In this document: positions 37,601 to 51,237 of the stretch, piece by piece
Position numbering within the stretch: position 1 is the stretch's first letter
How the letters are laid out: each line of letters starts with the position of its first letter
Source of the DNA: Thermodesulfobacteriota bacterium
GTDB taxonomy: Bacteria; Desulfobacterota_D; UBA1144; Nemesobacterales; UBA2774
Reading direction: 5' to 3'
DNA length: 64,000 bases
Assembly (NCBI GenBank): GCA_963422265.1
Contig: OY729416.1
Coordinates: forward strand, 1,280,001 to 1,344,000
Position numbers and translations under genes: made by a program
Notes under the pieces: generated by a model
What the model was told of the DNA's origin: nothing
The model's database searches: none
Seen by the model: the letters and a program-made list of their open reading frames with translations, nothing else

Positions 37601-39246
37601 TCACGTATGGCATCAATAGCAGGGTTGGTAACTTGCGCGAATAGTTGCTTGAAGTATTCATATAAAAGCCTTGGCCTTTGGGAAAGAACGGCAATCGGTG
37701 TATCTTTGCCCATAGACCCTACGGGCTCGACCACGTTATTAACCATAGGTGCTATAATTACCCTTAAATCCTCAAACGTATAGCCAAAAACCCTTTGTCT
37801 TTGAAGCACCCTGTCATGGTTGTAATTTAGCTCATCCCGATCTTGGGTTGGAATGCCTTCGGAGCTAGCTTCGGGCATAGGCAAGTTAGTAATGTCAACT
37901 ATGTTGTTATTAAGCCATTCCCTGTAAGGATTTTCACCCACAAGCCTGCTCTTAATCTCTTCATCTTCTACTATACGCCCTTCACTCGTATCAACTAGAA
38001 ACATCCTGCCGGGCTGAAGCCTTCCCTTATGGGCTATCATGCTGGCTGGAACCTCAAGTACCCCAACCTCAGAACCCATAATTACCATATCATCCTTAGT
38101 AACGTAGTAGCGCGATGGGCGGAGACCGTTTCTATCCAGCACAGCCCCTACCTTAGCGCCATCAGTAAATGCTATTGAAGCTGGTCCATCCCAAGGCTCC
38201 ATAAGACAACTGTGGTATTCATAAAAGGCTTTCTTTTGATCGCTCATCGTTTCGTGGTTAGACCAAGGCTCAGGTATCATCATCATAACAGCATGTTCTA
38301 TAGGACGCCCCGCAAGCGTTAGAAACTCAACGCAGTTGTCAAAATTAGCCGAGTCGCTCCCTTCGGGTGCTATTATAGGAAAAGCTTTTTTAATACCCTC
38401 TCCGAATAAATCCGAGGAAAAAACAGCTTGGCGAGCGTGCATCCAGTTGATATTACCCCTCAGCGTATTTATTTCACCGTTATGAACAACGTAGCGATAG
38501 GGGTGAGAACGATCCCAGCTAGGAAAGGTGTTTGTGCTAAATCGAGAATGCACAAGGGCAATGGCGGATTCAATCGTTTCATCACTCAAATCCGGATAGT
38601 AACCCTCAAGCTGCCAGGTAGTGAGCATTCCTTTATATACAACAGTCTGGTGGGAAAGACTAAGCGCATAGAAATACTCCCCACCACTTATACCGGAAAG
38701 CCTAATTTCATTAAGCGCCCTCTTTCGTATTATGAAAAGCTTGCGCTCAAAAGACATATTATCCACAAGCTCACGGGCGCGACGAATAAAAACCTGCATT
38801 GTATAGGGCTCATATTCCCTCGCCGTATCTCCGAGAGAGGAGTTGTCAGTAGGAACTTCGCGCCAGCCTAAAACGGATTGTCCCTCCTCCTCTACTATTT
38901 TTTCGAAAATCTCAATACATTCCCTTCTTTCAGATGGGTCAGGAGGGAAAAAGAATATCCCTACGCCGTATTCATCAAAAGAAGGCAAAGGTATATCCAG
39001 TTCGGAACAAGCTTTTTCTAAGAAAGCGTGCGGTTTTTGAATGAGAATGCCGGCTCCATCCCCCGTGTTAGCCTCACAGCCACAAGCCCCCCTGTGCTCC
39101 AAGTTGAGTAGCACCGTCAGAGCGTTGCGCACTATTTGATTAGATTTTTTACCCTTTATATTTACTACAAATCCGATTCCGCACGAGTCATGTTCAAAAT
39201 TAGGGTCATAAAGTCCCTGCTTAGGTGGAAATCCAAGTGGCTTCAT
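34612..39246 (-). CDS. gltB: Glutamate synthase large subunit
   Basis: [45 protein letters not shown]; 1544 aa. Confidence 0.98.
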
Positions 39247-39569
39247 AAAAACACCGTCCCGACAGCTATAAATGCGATTATTATTTATATACGTTTAGTT
39301 TGATACAGGATTGACCCGCAATTACCGCTAAACAACTCAATAACAGTCTAATTAAAATAGATGATAAGTCAAAACGGCGAACGTCTGAATCTATATTTAG
39401 TAAACGGAATTACACACTTTCTGTCCTCGCCAGTTCCTTGACAGACAAAAACCCATTTAGCATCTTGCCCAATAAAAAGCCAATGAGTAACCCTAATTTC
39501 ATAAGTGTTGAATTAGGACAAACACTTGTTCAATGCCAATCAAGCCTAGGATTCAGGGATCATTTGGTG

Positions 39570-42500
39570 TCATGTAGCTTCGTTAGCTCTTAAGATATCC
39601 AATGCGCGCTTACGGTGCAGATGCGGATGCGCGAATTGATTGCGGTAGCTGCGCAGGCAACCGTAGCAACTCGAACCACAACCACAGTTTCCCTGAACTC
39701 GCTCCTGTGCGTTGCGAAGCATTGCATTGAAAACGTTCTCCTGTTCCAGTTGCGCCACCAGCCCGGCGCCACCGGGAACATTATCGTAAAGCACAATCGC
39801 TGACTCGCCCGAATGTTTGTCGCCGGTAATCGTCACGTTGAAGTTCGTATCCGGCACGTCCAGCGTCTGTGCCGCGCCAAGCAGGACCGCGTAAGCGACG
39901 GAATACGTGTCCCACTTCTCATGCAATCCCGGAAATTGCAGGCGTACCACGTCCGTTTCCAGCTCATGCCCGAGCGAGAACCGGCCCAGCTCGCCGCCGC
40001 ATTCGGAACCCGAGGGTGATTTGTGTTTTGCGGTCCGCTCGGTCATGTGAGTGCCGCAGGAACGGCAGATATAGAACCCTTCCTTGTTTCTGCCCTCACA
40101 CAGGATGACCAGAGTTCCGGGCAGGGCCTTGGTCACTTGTACGCCCAGCATAGTCCTGGTTTCGGGCTGGACGTCCTTTTTGAATCCTTGAAAGAAAGGC
40201 TGCGTCGTATACAGTCGTCGTGCCCGCCTCTGCGGTTTCTTGGGCTGCGCGAACAGCGGCGTTACGAAACCGAACTTCGGGATAAGATATTTCCGCGCGC
40301 TTACGGACGGATTGTCTTCATTCCATTGCGTGAAGTTGTGTGCCTCGTCATATTGGTACTTCTGGACAAGCCATGCCTTACCTGTTACAGTTTTCACGCC
40401 GCAGGATTTCCACTCCAGCTTGTTGGCAACCACCTTGCCGCCGGGCGCATATTCGGCGATCGCTTGCGACAGGTCCCGCTGGAGGGAAACACCGGTCGGC
40501 TGACCATCTCGGGAGCGGATTTCGAGTTCAACGACATCCACCGGAAACCCGTATTTTGGAATAACGGCTTTACGAGAAAGAAAATTCAGGGTTGATTCTT
40601 CTTTAACGGTATGCATGCGCTCGCCGATACGGGCAATGTAGCGGTCTTTCCCTTGCTCGTAGTATTGCTTTCTGAGCACCTTCATGTCACTATAATCCGC
40701 GCACACTTCTGCTTCCACATCAGCGAATCGACTCTTCGACCCCGCGATCTTCTCGATCCAGGAATCGTCGGCAAGGCCAGTCCCTTCGTGCATGTCCTCC
40801 GGCACGATTTGGCGCAGCGAGTTTTTCAATTCGTCATTACGTTCGCAAAACGCCTTCAGGTCGGACGTCGCACAAGGATGCGACCAGCTTTCAACAAAGT
40901 GCTCTACTTTTTTAAAGCGCATTTCATTTTCCCTGAAGAATGCGGACAGGGCAGTGGCCACCATGTGCCGCAAAACAATTTTCTCGTTCGTCATCCGCAG
41001 GCGTGGCGGATGCACCGTGCCCTTGATCACCCGCTTGACTGGATCTTCGTAGTGATACAGGTCATGTGGATTGCGGCGGCAATAGGTTAGTGCCAAACCG
41101 GGTGTCTCCCGTCGCCCGGCGCGTCCAACGCGCTGGGTGTAGTTGAATGGCTCCGGCGGCACGTTGCGCAGAAATACGACTTCCAAATCGCCGAGGTCAA
41201 CGCCGACCTCGAACGTGGTAGAAGAACTTAGTAGATGGGTGCTGCCGTTCCTGAACCTGTCCTGTCTTTTGCGTGCTTCGTCACTGTTGATCTGCGCGGT
41301 ATGCTCTTCCGCGCGCAGGCGTGGAGGCAAGTCGGCACTCTCGTAGAGGACTCGATAGTGGTTCTCCTTAAGGCGTGCCTGATTGGTGCGCGACAAGGTG
41401 CCAGGGCAACGATTCCGGGGACAAATTCCACGAATATTGTGGTTGCTCACAGTTGCGCAGGTATCACACTCCCAGATCTCGTTAGCCCCGGCGGGTTTGA
41501 TCCGCAGCCAGCGTGGATCGAGACGAAATGTCCCGTTCACCTTTCCGGGCGAAAGGATGGGGTCGTCGGCATGATTCCGTAACGCGCGCCACACATCCTC
41601 CATGAGCTTCGTTGATGCCGATAACTTCTGGTTATCGGCCAGGCCGCTGCCCACGAGCAGCCGGCGAAGGAAATGTCTCACGATCGCGGATTTGGGGCCG
41701 CCCCACTCGAACACGTTTTGCCGTCCTCCCTGAGATCCCAGGCCGCATGCCTGTTGTTTCCACGATGAAACATCGCTCCATTCCGGCGTTCCGGCGCCTT
41801 CCGGCAAACTCATGGCGCGGCGCGGGCGCAATTCGTCCAAGAGATATCCGATCAGGCGATGCGCCTCGTCATTCGTGAAATTCCATGGCGGCTGCCATAT
41901 GGCCTGTGGCAAGCGCAACTCGTCGGGAATCTTGACGAACCACCTGACCAGGCCAACTCCGCTCAAGGATAGCCTTCTTTCGTCTGTCAGCGCCTCGCGC
42001 AGGATCGCCGTCAGCACCTTTCGATCTTTGCCCTCGGAGGTATCGGACGCCTCGAACAGACCGGCCTGTTCCCATTGTCCGCGCAACCGGTTCCTGAGAT
42101 CATCAATGGACAGACCTTCGGGGCCGACCGGCCCCGCCTTGATCGCCCGCAGCATGAGATTGCGGTCGCGCAGCTTTTCGTAGGAGTCCTCGGCGTACCA
42201 GGCGAAGAAGGCGGCTTCCTGACGGCTGTCGGCAAACGCCAGTACCTTGCGTCTGTCTTCCGGCAGTAACTTGTGCAGGGCGGTGGCAATAACCGCGTTG
42301 GGTCCATCGGAGCCATGCACGATCTCTTGCACCGGGTCGCCGATGCCGCCGCGCTGATAGCCGCAGCTCTCGCATTCCTTCAGCTGATCGGCATGTTGTT
42401 GGTGAGACTCGCACTTCTTCACGCGAATTGCCGCTCTGCAATCGCATGCCGGCGTGGACGTTGAGAGCGTGCCGCAGCGCCGGCACAGCCACCTGTCCTC

Positions 42501-43784
42501 ATCCTCCACTGGAAAATAATAATCCACGCCGAATTCTTCCTGGCTGGGATCGCGGATGGCCTCTTTCAGCTTTCCGTCCCGTTCCTTGCCAACATAGTAG
42601 TGCTGGCCGCACTCGCGGCACAGGGCGATTTCCAACGGCTCCGCGTTCAACCCGTTTGTACTTTCCTCCTTACGGTTGAGCACGACAACGTCCTTGCCGT
42701 CTCTATGAATAAGGAATGCTCCTTCGAGTGCCCGCAAAAAGGCGTGGTAGCGGCGTGCAGACTCGTCCTTGGCAGGCGGCTGTAATTCGCCGAAGACGAT
42801 ACCGGGCGCCGAAAAGGGTTCTCCGAAGAGTTCTGCCGCAAACTTCGCCACCACTTGTTTGTCTTCCTCGCCTTCGCCAGAGGAAAGGGTGGCGCTGGTG
42901 GCAATGCAGCGGAATGGATCCTGCCGCCCGCCGTTGCGCAACCGCTGCCTGAGGCGTCGGATCAACATGCCCATCTCCATGCCCTTGGCGCCGCGGTACT
43001 GATGTGCCTCGTCAAGCACGATGAACTGCCAGTGCATGCCTCGGTCGCCGTCGAACAGCCGGCTGTCTTTGGGGCGGATCAGCAGATATTCCAGCATCGA
43101 ATAATTGGTCAGCAGAATGTGGGGCGGTGTATCTCGCATCTCGTCACGGAAGACCAGTTCTCCGTCTAGTCGTCCTTCTGCTTTCGCGTCGGCATTGCGC
43201 CGGCTGTCACTGGCATTCTCGGGCGTCTGGCCAATGTACTGTCCGAACTTCGGGCAGAATGCAGATGCTGACTCGCGCAACTCCTTGCAGATCTTGCCAA
43301 GGCGCTCGCGCTGATCGTTGGCGAGTGCGTTCATCGGATACAGGATCATTGCTCGCACGCCCGGTTCGTCAAGTTTGCCCGCAAGATGCTGACGATACAA
43401 CTCGAACAGGATCGGATAGAGAAAGCATTCGGTTTTACCGCTGGCGGTGCCGGTGGCCACGACGACGTTACGGTCGTCGATATGCGTAGCGCGGATGGCG
43501 CGCTCCTGATGCACGTACAACGGATGCTCGATCAGCGCCGGAAGAAGACCTTCGCCCTCATCCGGAAAGCATTCCCGCGTCAACTCCCGCGCTGTCAATC
43601 CCGTCTTGAATTCCCGTGCCTGTTCGAGATATGGGCCTTTCAGCAGACTCCCTTCTTCTTGCAAGGCGGTCTGGAAAGAGGCTCGCAGTTTCGGTTCCTT
43701 GAAGAAGAACGAAGTCTTCAGGTAGTTTTCGTAACGTTGGCGAATCTTTTCAGGCCAACGCTGTATATCGGTCGCGTCAGGCAT
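39570..43784 (-). CDS. Large SF2 DEAH-box helicase with Zn-binding inserts and C-terminal DUF1998 (DruE/SftH/MrfA-like)
   Basis: LYVHQ, ATGTASGKTE, YPMNALANDQ, TNYSMLEY, LDEAH, SAT, FADSRQ, EEHTAQ, TFEVGVDLG, QRVGRAGR; C-terminal YDNVPGGAG...CGCGSSCYGCL; several CxxC pairs. Confidence 0.92.
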   Translation of the reverse strand: MPDATDIQRWPEKIRQRYENYLKTSFFFKEPKLRASFQTALQEEGSLLKGPYLEQAREFKTGLTARELTRECFPDEGEGLLPALIEHPLYVHQERAIRATHIDDRNVVVATGTASGKTECFLYPILFELYRQHLAGKLDEPGVRAMILYPMNALANDQRERLGKICKELRESASAFCPKFGQYIGQTPENASDSRRNADAKAEGRLDGELVFRDEMRDTPPHILLTNYSMLEYLLIRPKDSRLFDGDRGMHWQFIVLDEAHQYRGAKGMEMGMLIRRLRQRLRNGGRQDPFRCIATSATLSSGEGEEDKQVVAKFAAELFGEPFSAPGIVFGELQPPAKDESARRYHAFLRALEGAFLIHRDGKDVVVLNRKEESTNGLNAEPLEIALCRECGQHYYVGKERDGKLKEAIRDPSQEEFGVDYYFPVEDEDRWLCRRCGTLSTSTPACDCRAAIRVKKCESHQQHADQLKECESCGYQRGGIGDPVQEIVHGSDGPNAVIATALHKLLPEDRRKVLAFADSRQEAAFFAWYAEDSYEKLRDRNLMLRAIKAGPVGPEGLSIDDLRNRLRGQWEQAGLFEASDTSEGKDRKVLTAILREALTDERRLSLSGVGLVRWFVKIPDELRLPQAIWQPPWNFTNDEAHRLIGYLLDELRPRRAMSLPEGAGTPEWSDVSSWKQQACGLGSQGGRQNVFEWGGPKSAIVRHFLRRLLVGSGLADNQKLSASTKLMEDVWRALRNHADDPILSPGKVNGTFRLDPRWLRIKPAGANEIWECDTCATVSNHNIRGICPRNRCPGTLSRTNQARLKENHYRVLYESADLPPRLRAEEHTAQINSDEARKRQDRFRNGSTHLLSSSTTFEVGVDLGDLEVVFLRNVPPEPFNYTQRVGRAGRRETPGLALTYCRRNPHDLYHYEDPVKRVIKGTVHPPRLRMTNEKIVLRHMVATALSAFFRENEMRFKKVEHFVESWSHPCATSDLKAFCERNDELKNSLRQIVPEDMHEGTGLADDSWIEKIAGSKSRFADVEAEVCADYSDMKVLRKQYYEQGKDRYIARIGERMHTVKEESTLNFLSRKAVIPKYGFPVDVVELEIRSRDGQPTGVSLQRDLSQAIAEYAPGGKVVANKLEWKSCGVKTVTGKAWLVQKYQYDEAHNFTQWNEDNPSVSARKYLIPKFGFVTPLFAQPKKPQRRARRLYTTQPFFQGFKKDVQPETRTMLGVQVTKALPGTLVILCEGRNKEGFYICRSCGTHMTERTAKHKSPSGSECGGELGRFSLGHELETDVVRLQFPGLHEKWDTYSVAYAVLLGAAQTLDVPDTNFNVTITGDKHSGESAIVLYDNVPGGAGLVAQLEQENVFNAMLRNAQERVQGNCGCGSSCYGCLRSYRNQFAHPHLHRKRALDILRANEAT

Positions 43785-46569
43785 CGCTCAACCTCCTGAG
43801 CATGTCTATATCGACTTTGTGCGTACTGCGGCGGCGCTTGTCGATAGGGATGGCTCGACGTGCTGCGTCCGCATTGGTCAGGCCCGCAGCGTGAATCTCG
43901 CCGCGGCTGAATCCCTTGCCTGGTCGCCAGCCTCCACCTGCGCGTTTGACGCGGGCGGACGCTTTTCCTCTAGGCGGCAGTGAAGGGAAAACGATCACGG
44001 TGACGGCTTGCGTCATGTCGTCCAGGCCGGAAGCCTTCAGCCTCAGCGTATAGGTTGTGGTCTCCAACGGCGCGACCATCCGGCTGCCGCTCGTTTCGAC
44101 TTTGCCTATATCAGGATCAATCACCATGCCATCTGTCTCCGCATTCCGCGTCTCCCAGCGCAATGTCGCCTGCTCCCCAGCAGTGACCGCCGTCGGTTCA
44201 TTCGTAAAGGAAACGATCGTCGGCGCAGGGTCAGCAGAAACCCGGATGAGCGTCATCGTGGCTCCGCCACATTCAACGCTGAGCAAGGCATCCTCATTCA
44301 GTCGCTGGTCGACCTGTGTATAGTCGACGAAATGGGTCAGGGGGATATTGGTGTCGTCTCCCTTATTTTGGGGGCTGTACGTTCGATCCAACTCATTGTC
44401 GAACCCTACCTTCACAGAACTGATGCGCGGCGGCGTACGCAACTGAAGTGCTCCATCTGCATAGGCCTGCTCACGAAACTCTTGCCGCGTCATCACTATG
44501 GGCGTGTCGCACCACTCCCTGAATTCGCTTGCATCTCGCTCCATACGCCACCAGGCACGCGGCAGATTCAGTACGATTTCGACACGGCCAGTAGCGGACT
44601 CCAACGCGCACGATACGGCATGTTCGTCCGGATGCGGCGCGACGATGACAGTGCCTTCCGGTCGCACGGTTGCGTGGGTTCCATCGGCAGTGAGGATCGG
44701 ACGAATAAGGGCGCTATCAGCACCGACGAATCGCACCTCCGTCGGAGGATGACCTGTCGGGGACGGGATCAGCAGCGTATCCAGAGAATATGGCTCGTTA
44801 TTGACGCGGATTTCTCGGAGATCTGCGAAGTAACGAAACTCATCGCTATCCAGTAACTTCACTTCACCGCCGTAAACGCGGATGAAGAACCGTCCCTGAC
44901 GGCCATTCAGAACCTCTGTAAGGGTACGCTCAGCCAACTTGAAGTTCTCGCCCTTCCAGCCATTTTGTTTTTCCTCGCCGACCCGCACCCAGATGATGTT
45001 TTTCGGCACCTTCAGTTTTGGCACGTCGCCGACAAACAGATCACCGTCTTCAGATTCGTCAAAGACACGCTTACCTTTCAGTTCGAAGCCGGATTGAGTC
45101 AACGCAGCTGGGCACTTCTCGAAGTCTCCAATGGTTTCCGCCGACTCTGTCCCGTCCCGAAAAAAGTAGTGCACCATAAAATCTGTATCCGTGCAACCTT
45201 CCGGCTCAATGGGAGCATTTCCCTTGCGCGTCCACTCTTGCGGTGCAATGACGATGAAGTATCCTTTCGTGATACCGCTGATCCTACGGCCATCGCCGGT
45301 CCAGTTATTCCGTAGCTTGAAGATCAGAGGTTGATCGTCGAACAATGAGAGCTCGTATGGTTCATTCTCCTCGAAAACCATGGACAGACTGCCGGCAAAC
45401 GACGCGAGACGACTCTCTCCATTCACGATTTCCAAAGATTTTCCGTTGTGCCGTACTTCCCTGATTCGGCATTCATCATTCGCGACCAGCACAACCTCCC
45501 ACTGACACGAACCAGTCGGTTTTTTGCAAACCAACTCTGGCCGGGGGATGAAGGATCCCTTGTTTCCGGAATCCCCACTGAGCGACGAGGGCTGTGATTG
45601 ACGGCCCCGCATCCCGCCGTGCCGGCGAGGTGTTTTAGAGTGAGCGTCTTTGCTGACTACACCATTTGCAGTAGAATCCTCTCCCGAGTCCGCACTGTCG
45701 CTCGCACTGCTACTATGTGTGCTTTCATGATCTTCTACAGGTTGTATGTCAAGTCTATCTGAGTCCTGAGCTTTGCCTTCCGTTGAATTAAAAGGGGAAC
45801 TATCTGACTTATTATTGTTCGAAGTAATCGACTTTACAGGTTTAGAATCTTCAAGACTTCCGCCGCCACCTTTGTAATCAAGCGATTCAATTATTTCTTC
45901 ACTAGAGCCCGGTTTATCTACAGGTGTTTCAGGCAGCTTGCCCTGATTTCCAGTTGCGTAGAAAGTATCAGACGTAGATTTGTATTCGTACGGACTAGAA
46001 TCTAGCTTCCCTGAATAACCACCTGACAACTCTGCACTCCAAGCTTCTTCTTTAGGCGGAGCTATAAGTATCGTTTCTGAGGTTTCACTGCTTGTAGCAT
46101 CCGACTCAATGTGAACTTGGTCGAACCAGTAGTCAGCATTACCCTCGGCTAACACTATGTCATTAGACATCAGCGAGCTTGGATCAATCATCAGACTCGG
46201 CAAAGAGTTATCCTGTCCATCTACATCACCGTGATTCTTTCTATCATCCTTATTATCAAACCTACTTGATATAGTTTTGTCCGAAAGACTATCTGATGAT
46301 TCTGTGCTTGAATTTGCGTCCGCCGCATTGTGTGCTACTGTTGGGAAGCCGCTCTCTCCAAGTCCATCCATCATATCGGATTCGCGCTGCACTGTTGAAT
46401 TGTATGTACCGTCCAGATTAGGACCCCTTTGTGCAATTTCTGCTGGTTCTCTCGCTGATCCCTGGGGCACAGAGGATGGATTGCGACTTCTTTCACCATT
46501 GTCCGAGGTCATAACCCGAGGGCACAAGTGCACAAATAGACGTCGTAACCAGTAAACGAACCTCTTCAT
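43777..46569 (-). CDS. 930-aa multidomain protein: disordered N-terminus, beta-rich core, Ig-like domain, C-terminal ribosomal eL13 (L13e)-like domain
   Basis: Long ORF overlapping the helicase start by 8 nt; ends WRPGKGFSRGEIHAAGLTNADAARRAIPIDKRRRSTHKVDIDMLRRL. Confidence 0.8.
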   Translation of the reverse strand: MKRFVYWLRRLFVHLCPRVMTSDNGERSRNPSSVPQGSAREPAEIAQRGPNLDGTYNSTVQRESDMMDGLGESGFPTVAHNAADANSSTESSDSLSDKTISSRFDNKDDRKNHGDVDGQDNSLPSLMIDPSSLMSNDIVLAEGNADYWFDQVHIESDATSSETSETILIAPPKEEAWSAELSGGYSGKLDSSPYEYKSTSDTFYATGNQGKLPETPVDKPGSSEEIIESLDYKGGGGSLEDSKPVKSITSNNNKSDSSPFNSTEGKAQDSDRLDIQPVEDHESTHSSSASDSADSGEDSTANGVVSKDAHSKTPRRHGGMRGRQSQPSSLSGDSGNKGSFIPRPELVCKKPTGSCQWEVVLVANDECRIREVRHNGKSLEIVNGESRLASFAGSLSMVFEENEPYELSLFDDQPLIFKLRNNWTGDGRRISGITKGYFIVIAPQEWTRKGNAPIEPEGCTDTDFMVHYFFRDGTESAETIGDFEKCPAALTQSGFELKGKRVFDESEDGDLFVGDVPKLKVPKNIIWVRVGEEKQNGWKGENFKLAERTLTEVLNGRQGRFFIRVYGGEVKLLDSDEFRYFADLREIRVNNEPYSLDTLLIPSPTGHPPTEVRFVGADSALIRPILTADGTHATVRPEGTVIVAPHPDEHAVSCALESATGRVEIVLNLPRAWWRMERDASEFREWCDTPIVMTRQEFREQAYADGALQLRTPPRISSVKVGFDNELDRTYSPQNKGDDTNIPLTHFVDYTQVDQRLNEDALLSVECGGATMTLIRVSADPAPTIVSFTNEPTAVTAGEQATLRWETRNAETDGMVIDPDIGKVETSGSRMVAPLETTTYTLRLKASGLDDMTQAVTVIVFPSLPPRGKASARVKRAGGGWRPGKGFSRGEIHAAGLTNADAARRAIPIDKRRRSTHKVDIDMLRRLSDA

Positions 46570-51148: not shown

Positions 51149-51237
51149 GCCGAAGTGGCGGAACTTGGCAGACGCGCTGGATTCAGGATCCAGTGAGCGG
51201 TAAGCTCGTGGGGGTTCAAATCCCCCCTTCGGCACCA
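51149..51237 (+). tRNA. tRNA-Leu (anticodon CAG)
   Basis: Acceptor GCCGAAG/CTTCGGC plus ACCA; anticodon arm CTGGA-TTCAGGA-TCCAG; long variable arm; GGTTCAAATCC T-loop. Confidence 0.96.

Follow-up and report, generated by a model that had tools for sequence, protein, structure and literature searches.

An eL13-homologous C-terminal module in the bacterial partner protein of a compact DruE helicase

Why should a large bacterial protein end in a ribosomal protein of archaea and eukaryotes? The question is raised by a stretch of 64,000 nt (hereafter, the window) from a Thermodesulfobacteriota bacterium (assembly GCA_963422265.1, contig OY729416.1, positions 1,280,001 to 1,344,000 of the forward strand), which encodes on its minus strand a 930-aa protein, P0001, directly upstream of a helicase of the DruE family. 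An initial annotation, made from the letters of the window, had read the last residues of P0001 as an eL13 (L13e)-like domain, that is, an rRNA-binding module domesticated into a non-ribosomal protein and possibly binding structured RNA or DNA or tethering a complex to ribosomes. We find that the tail is indeed an eL13 homolog, that its carrier belongs to a family of proteins encoded together with DruE, and that in this family the C-terminal module has changed repeatedly, other ribosomal proteins being among the replacements.

Homology of the tail to archaeal eL13

The peptide quoted in the initial annotation is the exact C-terminus of the open reading frame (ORF) of 930 aa at 43777..46569 (minus strand), window positions 43780–43977 encoding residues 865–930. 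Its likeness to eL13 proved to be real: the homology takes in residues 869–930 (about 62) and extends through the whole core of the short archaeal protein. In the Pfam comparison proposed as a check, the 72-aa tail alone matches Ribosomal_L13e (PF01294) with 26.6 bits (E 6.3e-6, cut-off 24.9). The match spans residues 882–917 and covers only profile positions 63–98 out of 180; the entire 930-aa protein scores 21.1 bits (E 3.1e-4), that is, under the same cut-off. The NCBIfam family NF008914 (archaeal L13e, 83 positions) is matched at positions 27–75 with E 7.5e-12 and 44.7 bits, far under its equivalog cut-off of 96 bits, and hence the tail does not qualify as an equivalog of this family.

Searches in both directions agree with this assignment. 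When phmmer was run against all chains of the Protein Data Bank (PDB), all 57 distinct sequences matched at E<=10 were eL13/L13, the best one being 9e6q_AH from the Pyrobaculum calidifontis 50S subunit (E 3.2e-6). A profile of 27 bacterial tails (A3), searched against 1.84 billion representative proteins, retrieved 1408 proteins at E<=1e-3, 471 of them with E<=1e-10; the best 150 matches include proteins of 64–146 aa named as 50S L13e of Thermoproteota/Korarchaeota and Bathyarchaeota (as cluster members). Aligned by hhalign with 18 archaeal L13e sequences (A4), the same 27 tails give 99.6% and E 2.3e-24 over 63 columns with 41% identity, a span that takes in nearly all of the shortest archaeal L13e proteins. 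By these comparisons the tail is an essentially complete short archaeal eL13, and more than a motif.

Out of the 11 columns that are at least 90% conserved in archaeal eL13, eight have the same residue in at least 85% of bacterial tails. The shared residues are G884, G886, F887, S888, E891, D910, R913, and N920; at the last of these positions the window protein itself has D920, N being found there in 96% of bacterial tails and in 18/18 archaeal sequences. Core sequence and spacing are common to the tail and archaeal eL13 over about 60 residues, and the Lys plus Arg content is similar (0.22 in the tail, 0.26 in the archaeal proteins). On the contrary, the context differs: archaeal eL13 is free-standing, whereas the bacterial copy ends a non-ribosomal protein of about 860 residues beside a defence helicase.

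The host genome is a single contig of 1.78 Mb, 99.4% complete. Judging by its gene content, the host is a bacterium, as it encodes bL9, which among 14 control genomes was matched only in the 10 bacterial ones. The tail, being encoded in a bacterial genome, is not a component of an archaeal/eukaryotic large ribosomal subunit, and no other L13e-like sequence was found in the host genome, the P0001 tail being the sole copy. In the accessible part of a survey of prokaryotic ribosomal proteins, L13e is placed among the non-ubiquitous archaeal ones (PMC3353972). The evolutionary side of the initial annotation is borne out as well: an eL13 module has been fused to a non-ribosomal bacterial protein, and 111 of the 120 nearest relatives retain it.

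The predicted fold points in the same direction. The AlphaFold model of the tail (m90e425774c93, pLDDT 72.7) consists of a beta-hairpin and three helices. Foldseek against PDB yields nothing at E<=1e-3, which is not surprising for a tail of some 60 residues; the best 50 rows (E 7e-3 to 5e-2) consist entirely of large-subunit or pre-60S chains of archaea and eukaryotes, and those that can be cross-checked against the phmmer PDB matches are eL13. The best query-normalised TM-score (0.62) is to 9e6q_AH, the same chain having Z 5.5 in VIA-align. In a wide VIA-align search of 48,161 representative chains only nine reach Z>=2. The top eight are large-subunit/pre-60S chains with Z 4.1–5.8 and 58–68 aligned residues, five of them named eL13/RPL13 by the phmmer search, and the ninth is an unrelated BRCT protein (Z 2.1). 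The tail model superposes on the eL13 fold, a check that the initial annotation had proposed. The Z values are modest, and the alignment behind the model is one of this very family; we therefore treat the predicted fold as corroboration of the sequence result and not as independent proof.

A module tree was built from 64 columns; it holds no eukaryotic sequences, its archaeal rows are those most similar to the bacterial profile, and in it the bacterial modules and archaeal eL13 occupy opposite sides of one branch with weak support (63/79), which is compatible with a single origin of the bacterial modules.

The same module is found in a second architecture, at the end of proteins of 370–460 aa that otherwise consist of an acidic disordered region (P0184, P0191, P0198; loci L048–L051). 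Matches to DruE or to the immunoglobulin (Ig)-like core of the P0001 family are present in none of the four loci, and on the module tree this class nests within the tails of DruE partners (96/83, a starred branch). The A3 profile also matched four DotG/IcmE-like proteins (P0129, P0173, P0201, P0216) with E from 1e-16 to 1e-22. These have been rejected as compositional false positives, the match being produced by 14–19 tandem AGFSxxELKxAG repeats; proteins with such repeats are a compositional trap for searches with the eL13 motif.

The partner protein, DruE, and their locus

The features of the locus are as follows (window coordinates).

43777..46569, minus strand: partner protein of DruE (P0001), 930 aa, from the ORF and its translation; stop codon at 43777–43779.
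46513..46569, minus strand: Trp/Arg-rich hydrophobic-basic N-terminal segment, residues 1–19; similar starts in relatives of the same clade (clade 1).
45538..46512, minus strand: acidic Ser/Asp-rich low-complexity region, about residues 20–344, by composition.
43996..45537, minus strand: array of Ig-like beta-sandwiches, residues 345–858, the conserved body, by AlphaFold and Foldseek.
43987..44220, minus strand: last Ig-like domain before the tail, about residues 784–861 (strands 440–517 of the 586 residues of the model).
43780..43965, minus strand: eL13-homologous module, residues 869–930, by profile, phmmer, hhalign, and fold matches.
39570..43784, minus strand: compact DruE helicase, 1404 aa, by PADLOC and Pfam.
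43777..43784, minus strand: 8-nt overlap of the end of the partner gene with the start of druE, by ORF coordinates.

Besides L13e, no Pfam, NCBIfam or PADLOC family matches P0001. Its first 19 residues could possibly form an amphipathic membrane-associating helix. Residues 1–344 comprise 56 D/E, 34 K/R, and 60 S, with an isoelectric point (pI) of 4.7; the acidic region varies in length, is unalignable among relatives, and is presumably disordered. The AlphaFold model of residues 345–930 (mbd604ba36a91, mean pLDDT 85.6) is almost all beta, and the best PDB matches of the body model in Foldseek are titin I65–I70, contactin Ig1–6, and DSCAM, no solved structure being related to the body by sequence. 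The last Ig-like domain is dispensable in some relatives, as P0207 and P0140 go straight from body to tail, and in one more relative, P0255 (1173 aa), the Ig-array body is duplicated in tandem and followed by a single eL13 tail. The regions contrast in charge: the tail has 15 K/R in 61 residues and pI 11.8, compared to pI 4.8 of the body and 4.7 of the N-terminal region.

The downstream gene encodes a DruE helicase by PADLOC (DruE1, E 6.5e-160; DruE3, E 5.9e-150). Pfam finds DEAD at residues 92–301, Helicase_C at 822–892, and MZB (MrfA Zn-binding/DUF1998) at 1297–1377, with nothing after it and no nuclease family anywhere in the protein. Between RecA1 and Helicase_C, residues 389–474 (window 42363–42620, minus strand) contain invariant cysteines, C389/C392, C434/C437, C447/C449, C458, and C471/C474, which probably form inserted zinc ribbons. 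DruE is highly conserved in the family, with the mean column identity of 73%. The two genes are flanked by housekeeping ones, those of glutamate synthase and NAD synthase, one on each side. Farther away, the sole Rfam match in the window at gathering thresholds is a tRNA gene (51149–51234, plus strand).

The pairing with DruE is not a feature of this genome only. Forty-one loci of relatives were collected from contigs of one genome per species; all 41 hosts are titled bacteria, being metagenome-assembled genomes titled as a dozen or so bacterial phyla. In 35 of the 41 loci the partner gene is immediately followed by a DruE homolog with 60–81% identity. Three of the six others are contigs of 2.5–3.4 kb (L016, L037, L040), two are partial body matches (L038, L041), and the last one, L004, has about 5 kb of downstream sequence with no DruE match. 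The 8-nt overlap in the window likely provides translational coupling of the two genes, and overlaps of a few nucleotides recur in eL13-tailed loci. No conserved third gene has been observed, the largest family of flanking ORFs being present in 3 of 31 loci. The partner and DruE form a two-gene module.

Druantia, to which this DruE points, is among the more widespread anti-phage systems. To our knowledge, its compact nuclease-less branch is uncharacterised, and the mechanism of Druantia type III has been worked out only in preprints of 2026. As described in the accessible parts of these preprints, single-stranded DNA binds DruH between Ig5 and the C-terminal domain (10.64898/2026.05.12.722862); DruH is reported to be a 3'-5' exonuclease, with the C-terminal domain docking on the DruE Stalk (10.64898/2026.05.13.724313); canonical DruH is argued to sense phage proteins, positively selected residues being located in its Ig-like domains (10.64898/2026.05.12.724681); and in a 'III-B' subtype DruE is compact and lacks PLD domains (10.64898/2026.05.13.724758). 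A survey of the YprA family, also available in part, describes a 'type III-like' branch most often without a nuclease domain (10.1101/2025.09.15.676423). In the accessible text on Mycobacterium smegmatis, a DruE whose annotated domains are only helicase and DUF1998 provides defence jointly with an overlapping partner; there the overlap is 17 bp, the partner is 1132 aa and DruE, 1667 aa, compared to 8 nt, 930 aa, and 1404 aa in the window (PMC13316683).

The window locus resembles these systems in some respects and differs in others. Its DruE carries the signature of Druantia III, the superfamily 2 (SF2) core with MZB/DUF1998. As far as the available descriptions go, Druantia III-A of E. coli and P. 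aeruginosa has, as the window does, a two-gene operon with the partner upstream of a DruE with MZB/DUF1998, and DruH has the same build as the window partner, a tandem Ig-like array with a small end domain. By the same descriptions, the III-A DruE has C-terminal tandem PLD nuclease domains, whereas the window DruE ends at MZB, and in place of the N-terminal helical (nuclease) domain of DruH the window partner has the acidic low-complexity region. The C-terminal domain of the window protein is derived from eL13, unlike that of DruH. The III-B/III-like systems, as outlined in the accessible texts, have in common with the window a compact nuclease-less DruE and one upstream partner.

At the sequence level, the partner is not recognisable as DruH. 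It matches no PADLOC family at E<=0.1, whereas the E. coli YjiT/DruH control matches 12 DruH models, and hhalign of the partner family with E. coli DruH gives a probability of 0.4%. The two proteins are alike in the general build only, the Ig-like array, and the likeness of the tail to DruH's C-terminal domain is one of position, as no homology is detectable. Literature searches returned no paper describing a module from eL13 or any other ribosomal protein, whether in Druantia or in another bacterial defence protein. The words 'ribosomal' and 'ribosom' are absent from the main texts of the Druantia/YprA papers searched for them, 10.64898/2026.05.12.722862, 10.64898/2026.05.13.724758, 10.64898/2026.05.13.724313, 10.64898/2026.05.12.724681, 10.1101/2025.09.15.676423, and PMC13316683.

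The module bears signs of mobility. In the window it occupies a GC-rich island (39000–45000), with 50–60% GC in the module compared to 39–48% in the flanks. The partner family is found in none of 32 genomes of the host family; 28 genomes of the host order yield one strong match and one weak match to the Ig part only. In Dehalococcoidia, the titled class of locus L024 considered below, family matches are present in 3 of 301 genomes, and two phylum samples yield matches in 2 of 401 genomes each. Body plus tail have no tblastn match in annotated plasmids and phages, and no relative of the sister clade was found in viral contigs. We conclude from these data that the module is patchily distributed and horizontally mobile.

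Two of these relatives deserve a separate mention. In the strong match from the host order (genome G054, L053:394–3525, plus strand) the tail breaks off after the GKGFS..GEI motif, at a distance of 91 nt from druE, which may be due to a frameshift or decay. In genome G656 (locus L060, G656:C88:9000–19500) a partner of 766 aa with a zinc-finger tail is followed by a DruE of 1568 aa, the pair being located between two transposase-like ORFs, an arrangement that fits mobility of the module.

C-terminal modules across the family

Relatives of P0001 number at least 408 at E<=1e-3, and the tails of the best 120 of them (50–66% identity) were classified. An eL13 tail is present in 111/120, a Lys/Arg-rich helix in 6/120, and another tail in 3/120. 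The eL13 tail is mostly conserved at least as well as the body, e.g., 57% in the body and 68% in the tail of L002, 51% and 69% in L009. Among the 41 loci, tblastn identifies eL13 in 24, ORF ends add L013, L026, L028, and L036, eight loci have other tails, and five are truncated. In L028 (8348–8716, plus strand) an insertion of roughly 55 aa splits the eL13 module between the part with the GFS helix and the D-RRR part; in L036 (8297–8473, plus strand) the module is strongly degenerate.

One of the other tails is again a ribosomal protein. Locus L024 (8567–9025, plus strand; the genome is titled Dehalococcoidia) encodes a complete bacterial uS17 (99.3 bits, E 1.3e-28, profile positions 1–68 of 68), which follows a Pro/Lys-rich linker in the position held by eL13 in the window protein. 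An ordinary rpsQ-like frame exists separately in this genome, immediately behind an rpmC-like ORF (L046), and the S17 profile gives 100.7 bits for the fused uS17 vs. 85.8 bits for the ordinary rpsQ frame. A second fusion of this kind was not found: region 880–990 of the L024 protein has no matches among proteins of 544–1733 aa.

The remaining tails are less readily named. The Lys/Arg-rich helix tails of L017 and L022 match no significant Pfam family. A Z-alpha assignment considered for the 'type C' tail (L018, L027) was dropped, as phmmer gives E 0.04–0.15 and the two-sequence profile, only E 0.48; the best match of this profile is IFRD2 with E 0.0044 (domain E 2.3). The 'type D' tail (L029, L032) has no PDB match and only a weak Pfam match to HTH_12 (E 0.014), its atlas score being 0.85 to unnamed clusters, and the 'type E' tail (L015) has no match in Pfam or PDB searches.

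The DruE tree (32 rows) places the alternative tails within, not beside, the eL13-tailed lineages: starred branches force at least five changes, and parsimony counts seven. The tail changes between close DruE sisters, L002/L015, L025/L029+L032, and L021/L017. As read from this tree, the C-terminal module has been exchanged repeatedly.

A sister clade (clade 2) extends this pattern. It is homologous to the window clade by body, as the A2 profile matches L056 with E 1.1e-45, and P0378 matches the partner of L001 with E 5.8e-31. A search with the L056 body gave 236 hits, of which the best 120 (P0283–P0402) were counted. Seventy-five of these 120 carry a precomputed PF00380 (Ribosomal_S9) domain; in direct scans PF00380 was present in 4/4 proteins tested with the precomputed domain and absent in 6/6 tested without it. 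The match, with a score of 47–58 bits (cut-off 22.5), is located at the very C-terminus and extends over profile positions 1–94 out of 121. A local hidden Markov model (HMM) finds a uS9-like tail in 76/120, always within 30 residues of the C-terminus; out of the rest, 20 have two or three C2H2-like motifs, 16, another helical tail, and 8 are truncated or other. An eL13 tail is found in none of these 120 proteins by the local HMM. The zinc-finger tail of L057 is zf-BED by Pfam (27.2 bits vs. the cut-off of 20.6, E 4e-6).

DruE is directly downstream in both clade-2 loci available, L056 and G656, each with a zinc-finger tail. We infer that uS9-tailed members adjoin DruE as well, because their bodies, e.g., that of P0378, are homologous. 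The clades differ at the N-terminus, too: a transmembrane (TM) helix followed by an Arg/Lys cluster is present in 101/107 full-length clade-2 proteins and in 1/97 clade-1 proteins, many of the latter beginning with a Trp/Arg-rich amphipathic segment. By the positive-inside rule, the partner family may be membrane-associated, with the bulk of the protein in the cytoplasm. Taken together, clade 2 has a uS9 or zinc-finger tail and a true TM helix, while the window clade has the eL13 tail and no TM helix.

Public databases list several uS9-tailed proteins of 640–860 aa under the names '30S ribosomal protein S9' or 'uS9 family', which is likely a systematic mis-annotation. Hundreds of defence-associated proteins of 600–900 aa could similarly be named 'ribosomal protein S9' or 'L13e'.

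Possible roles of the tail

The reading that we prefer, with middling confidence, is that the tail is a swappable nucleic-acid-binding module of a predicted defence sensor or scaffold that works as the partner of DruE. P0001 would be the accessory subunit of a two-gene Druantia III-like putative anti-phage module, with the compact DruE as its motor. The tail, descended from a complete short archaeal-type eL13, would no longer work in the ribosome, but would hold phage-derived or infection-specific DNA or RNA so that DruE could load, a role that would parallel that of the DruH C-terminal domain, which with Ig5 binds single-stranded DNA and contacts DruE. Every replacement of the tail that could be given an identity is of a nucleic-acid-binding kind, i.e., uS17, uS9, BED/C2H2 fingers, and the Lys/Arg-rich helix. 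The signs of a defence function are indirect, and comprise homology to DruE, the GC-rich island, the patchy distribution, and the transposase-like flanks at G656.

Several points weigh against this reading. The recurrence of three unrelated ribosomal proteins hints at a specific link to the ribosome or rRNA. Several tail types matched no known family, and nucleic-acid binding may not extend to all tails. Homology of the partner to DruH is undetected by PADLOC and hhalign, leaving a positional analogy. Finally, no nuclease that could supply the effector step is recognisable in either protein. We still favour a general nucleic-acid-binding role, because eL13 is absent from bacterial ribosomes and because zinc fingers and basic helices substitute for it.

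The first of these points leads to a more specific possibility, that the tails bring the partner, and DruE with it, to ribosomes, their subunits or free rRNA, where the system would be parked or would monitor the state of translation during infection. Three different ribosomal-protein bodies in one position (eL13 in 111/120, uS9 in 76/120, uS17 in one genome) agree with it, as do the retained conserved residues of eL13, and the fact that the fused uS17 outscores the rpsQ frame of its own genome fits selection for native-like rRNA binding. However, eL13 is foreign to bacterial ribosomes and yet is the commonest tail of its clade, with 41/41 loci bacterial; zinc-finger and Lys/Arg-helix tails take the place of ribosomal ones; the uS9 tails cover only a part of the S9 profile (1–94/121), and the uS17 fusion is a singleton. 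Given this balance, we consider a ribosome or rRNA tether unlikely.

Integrated decoys of plant NLR receptors suggest another logic. The tail could be a bait, mimicking a host or host-like protein of the nucleic-acid machinery that is bound or modified by a phage factor; engagement of the bait would switch the partner and DruE on. One conserved chassis with many unrelated C-terminal domains of core machinery, repeatedly exchanged, is what such a mechanism might produce, and canonical DruH, whose Ig-like domains contain positively selected residues, is argued, in the accessible text, to sense phage proteins (10.64898/2026.05.12.724681). On the other hand, eL13 is not a bacterial host protein, so that these genomes offer no host target of which it could be a copy, a basic helix or BED/C2H2 fingers would hardly serve as baits, and the eL13 tail is conserved rather than diversifying; a bait function is quite unlikely.

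Alternatively, the tail could be mainly a protein–protein interface, holding or regulating DruE or folding back on the acidic N-terminal region. This would agree with the contact of the DruH C-terminal domain with the DruE Stalk, reported for canonical Druantia III in the part of the preprint available (10.64898/2026.05.13.724313), with the overlap of the partner and druE genes, and with the opposite character of the two ends of one chain, acidic in the N-terminal region (pI 4.7) and basic in the tail (pI 11.8). But tails of unrelated folds have been swapped between close DruE sisters (L002/L015, L025/L029+L032, L021/L017), while DruE itself is 73% conserved, and the eL13 module is present also in another class of proteins, whose loci have neither a DruE nor an Ig-core match (0/4 loci), which makes docking or autoinhibition as the main role very unlikely. 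That the eL13-like stretch is a neutral leftover of gene fusion or a chance resemblance is hardly credible, as the losses, splits, and truncations seen in some relatives (the L028 insertion, degenerate L036, G054 stopping after the GFS motif) are set against the Pfam, NCBIfam, phmmer, and hhalign statistics, retention of the tail in 111/120 relatives from about a dozen phyla, its conservation at or above that of the body, and the retained eL13-specific invariant residues.

Beyond the preferred nucleic-acid-binding role, a broader idea is worth stating tentatively, as one we regard as possible but rather improbable: that a widespread family of partners of compact Druantia-type helicases has repeatedly captured whole ribosomal proteins (eL13, uS9, uS17), thereby coupling defence to ribosomes or rRNA, or presenting baits. 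If true, it would mean a link between anti-phage helicases and the translation apparatus, which is found in none of the literature searched, and a transfer of eL13 from archaea to bacteria in the form of a defence-protein domain.

In any case, P0001 is a clear case of a ribosomal protein of the archaeal/eukaryotic type persisting as a domain of a bacterial protein. The compact Druantia branch gains a defined partner family, with a DruH-like build and an exchangeable C-terminal module, usually a ribosomal protein, and this tail offers a testable handle on what the system recognises.

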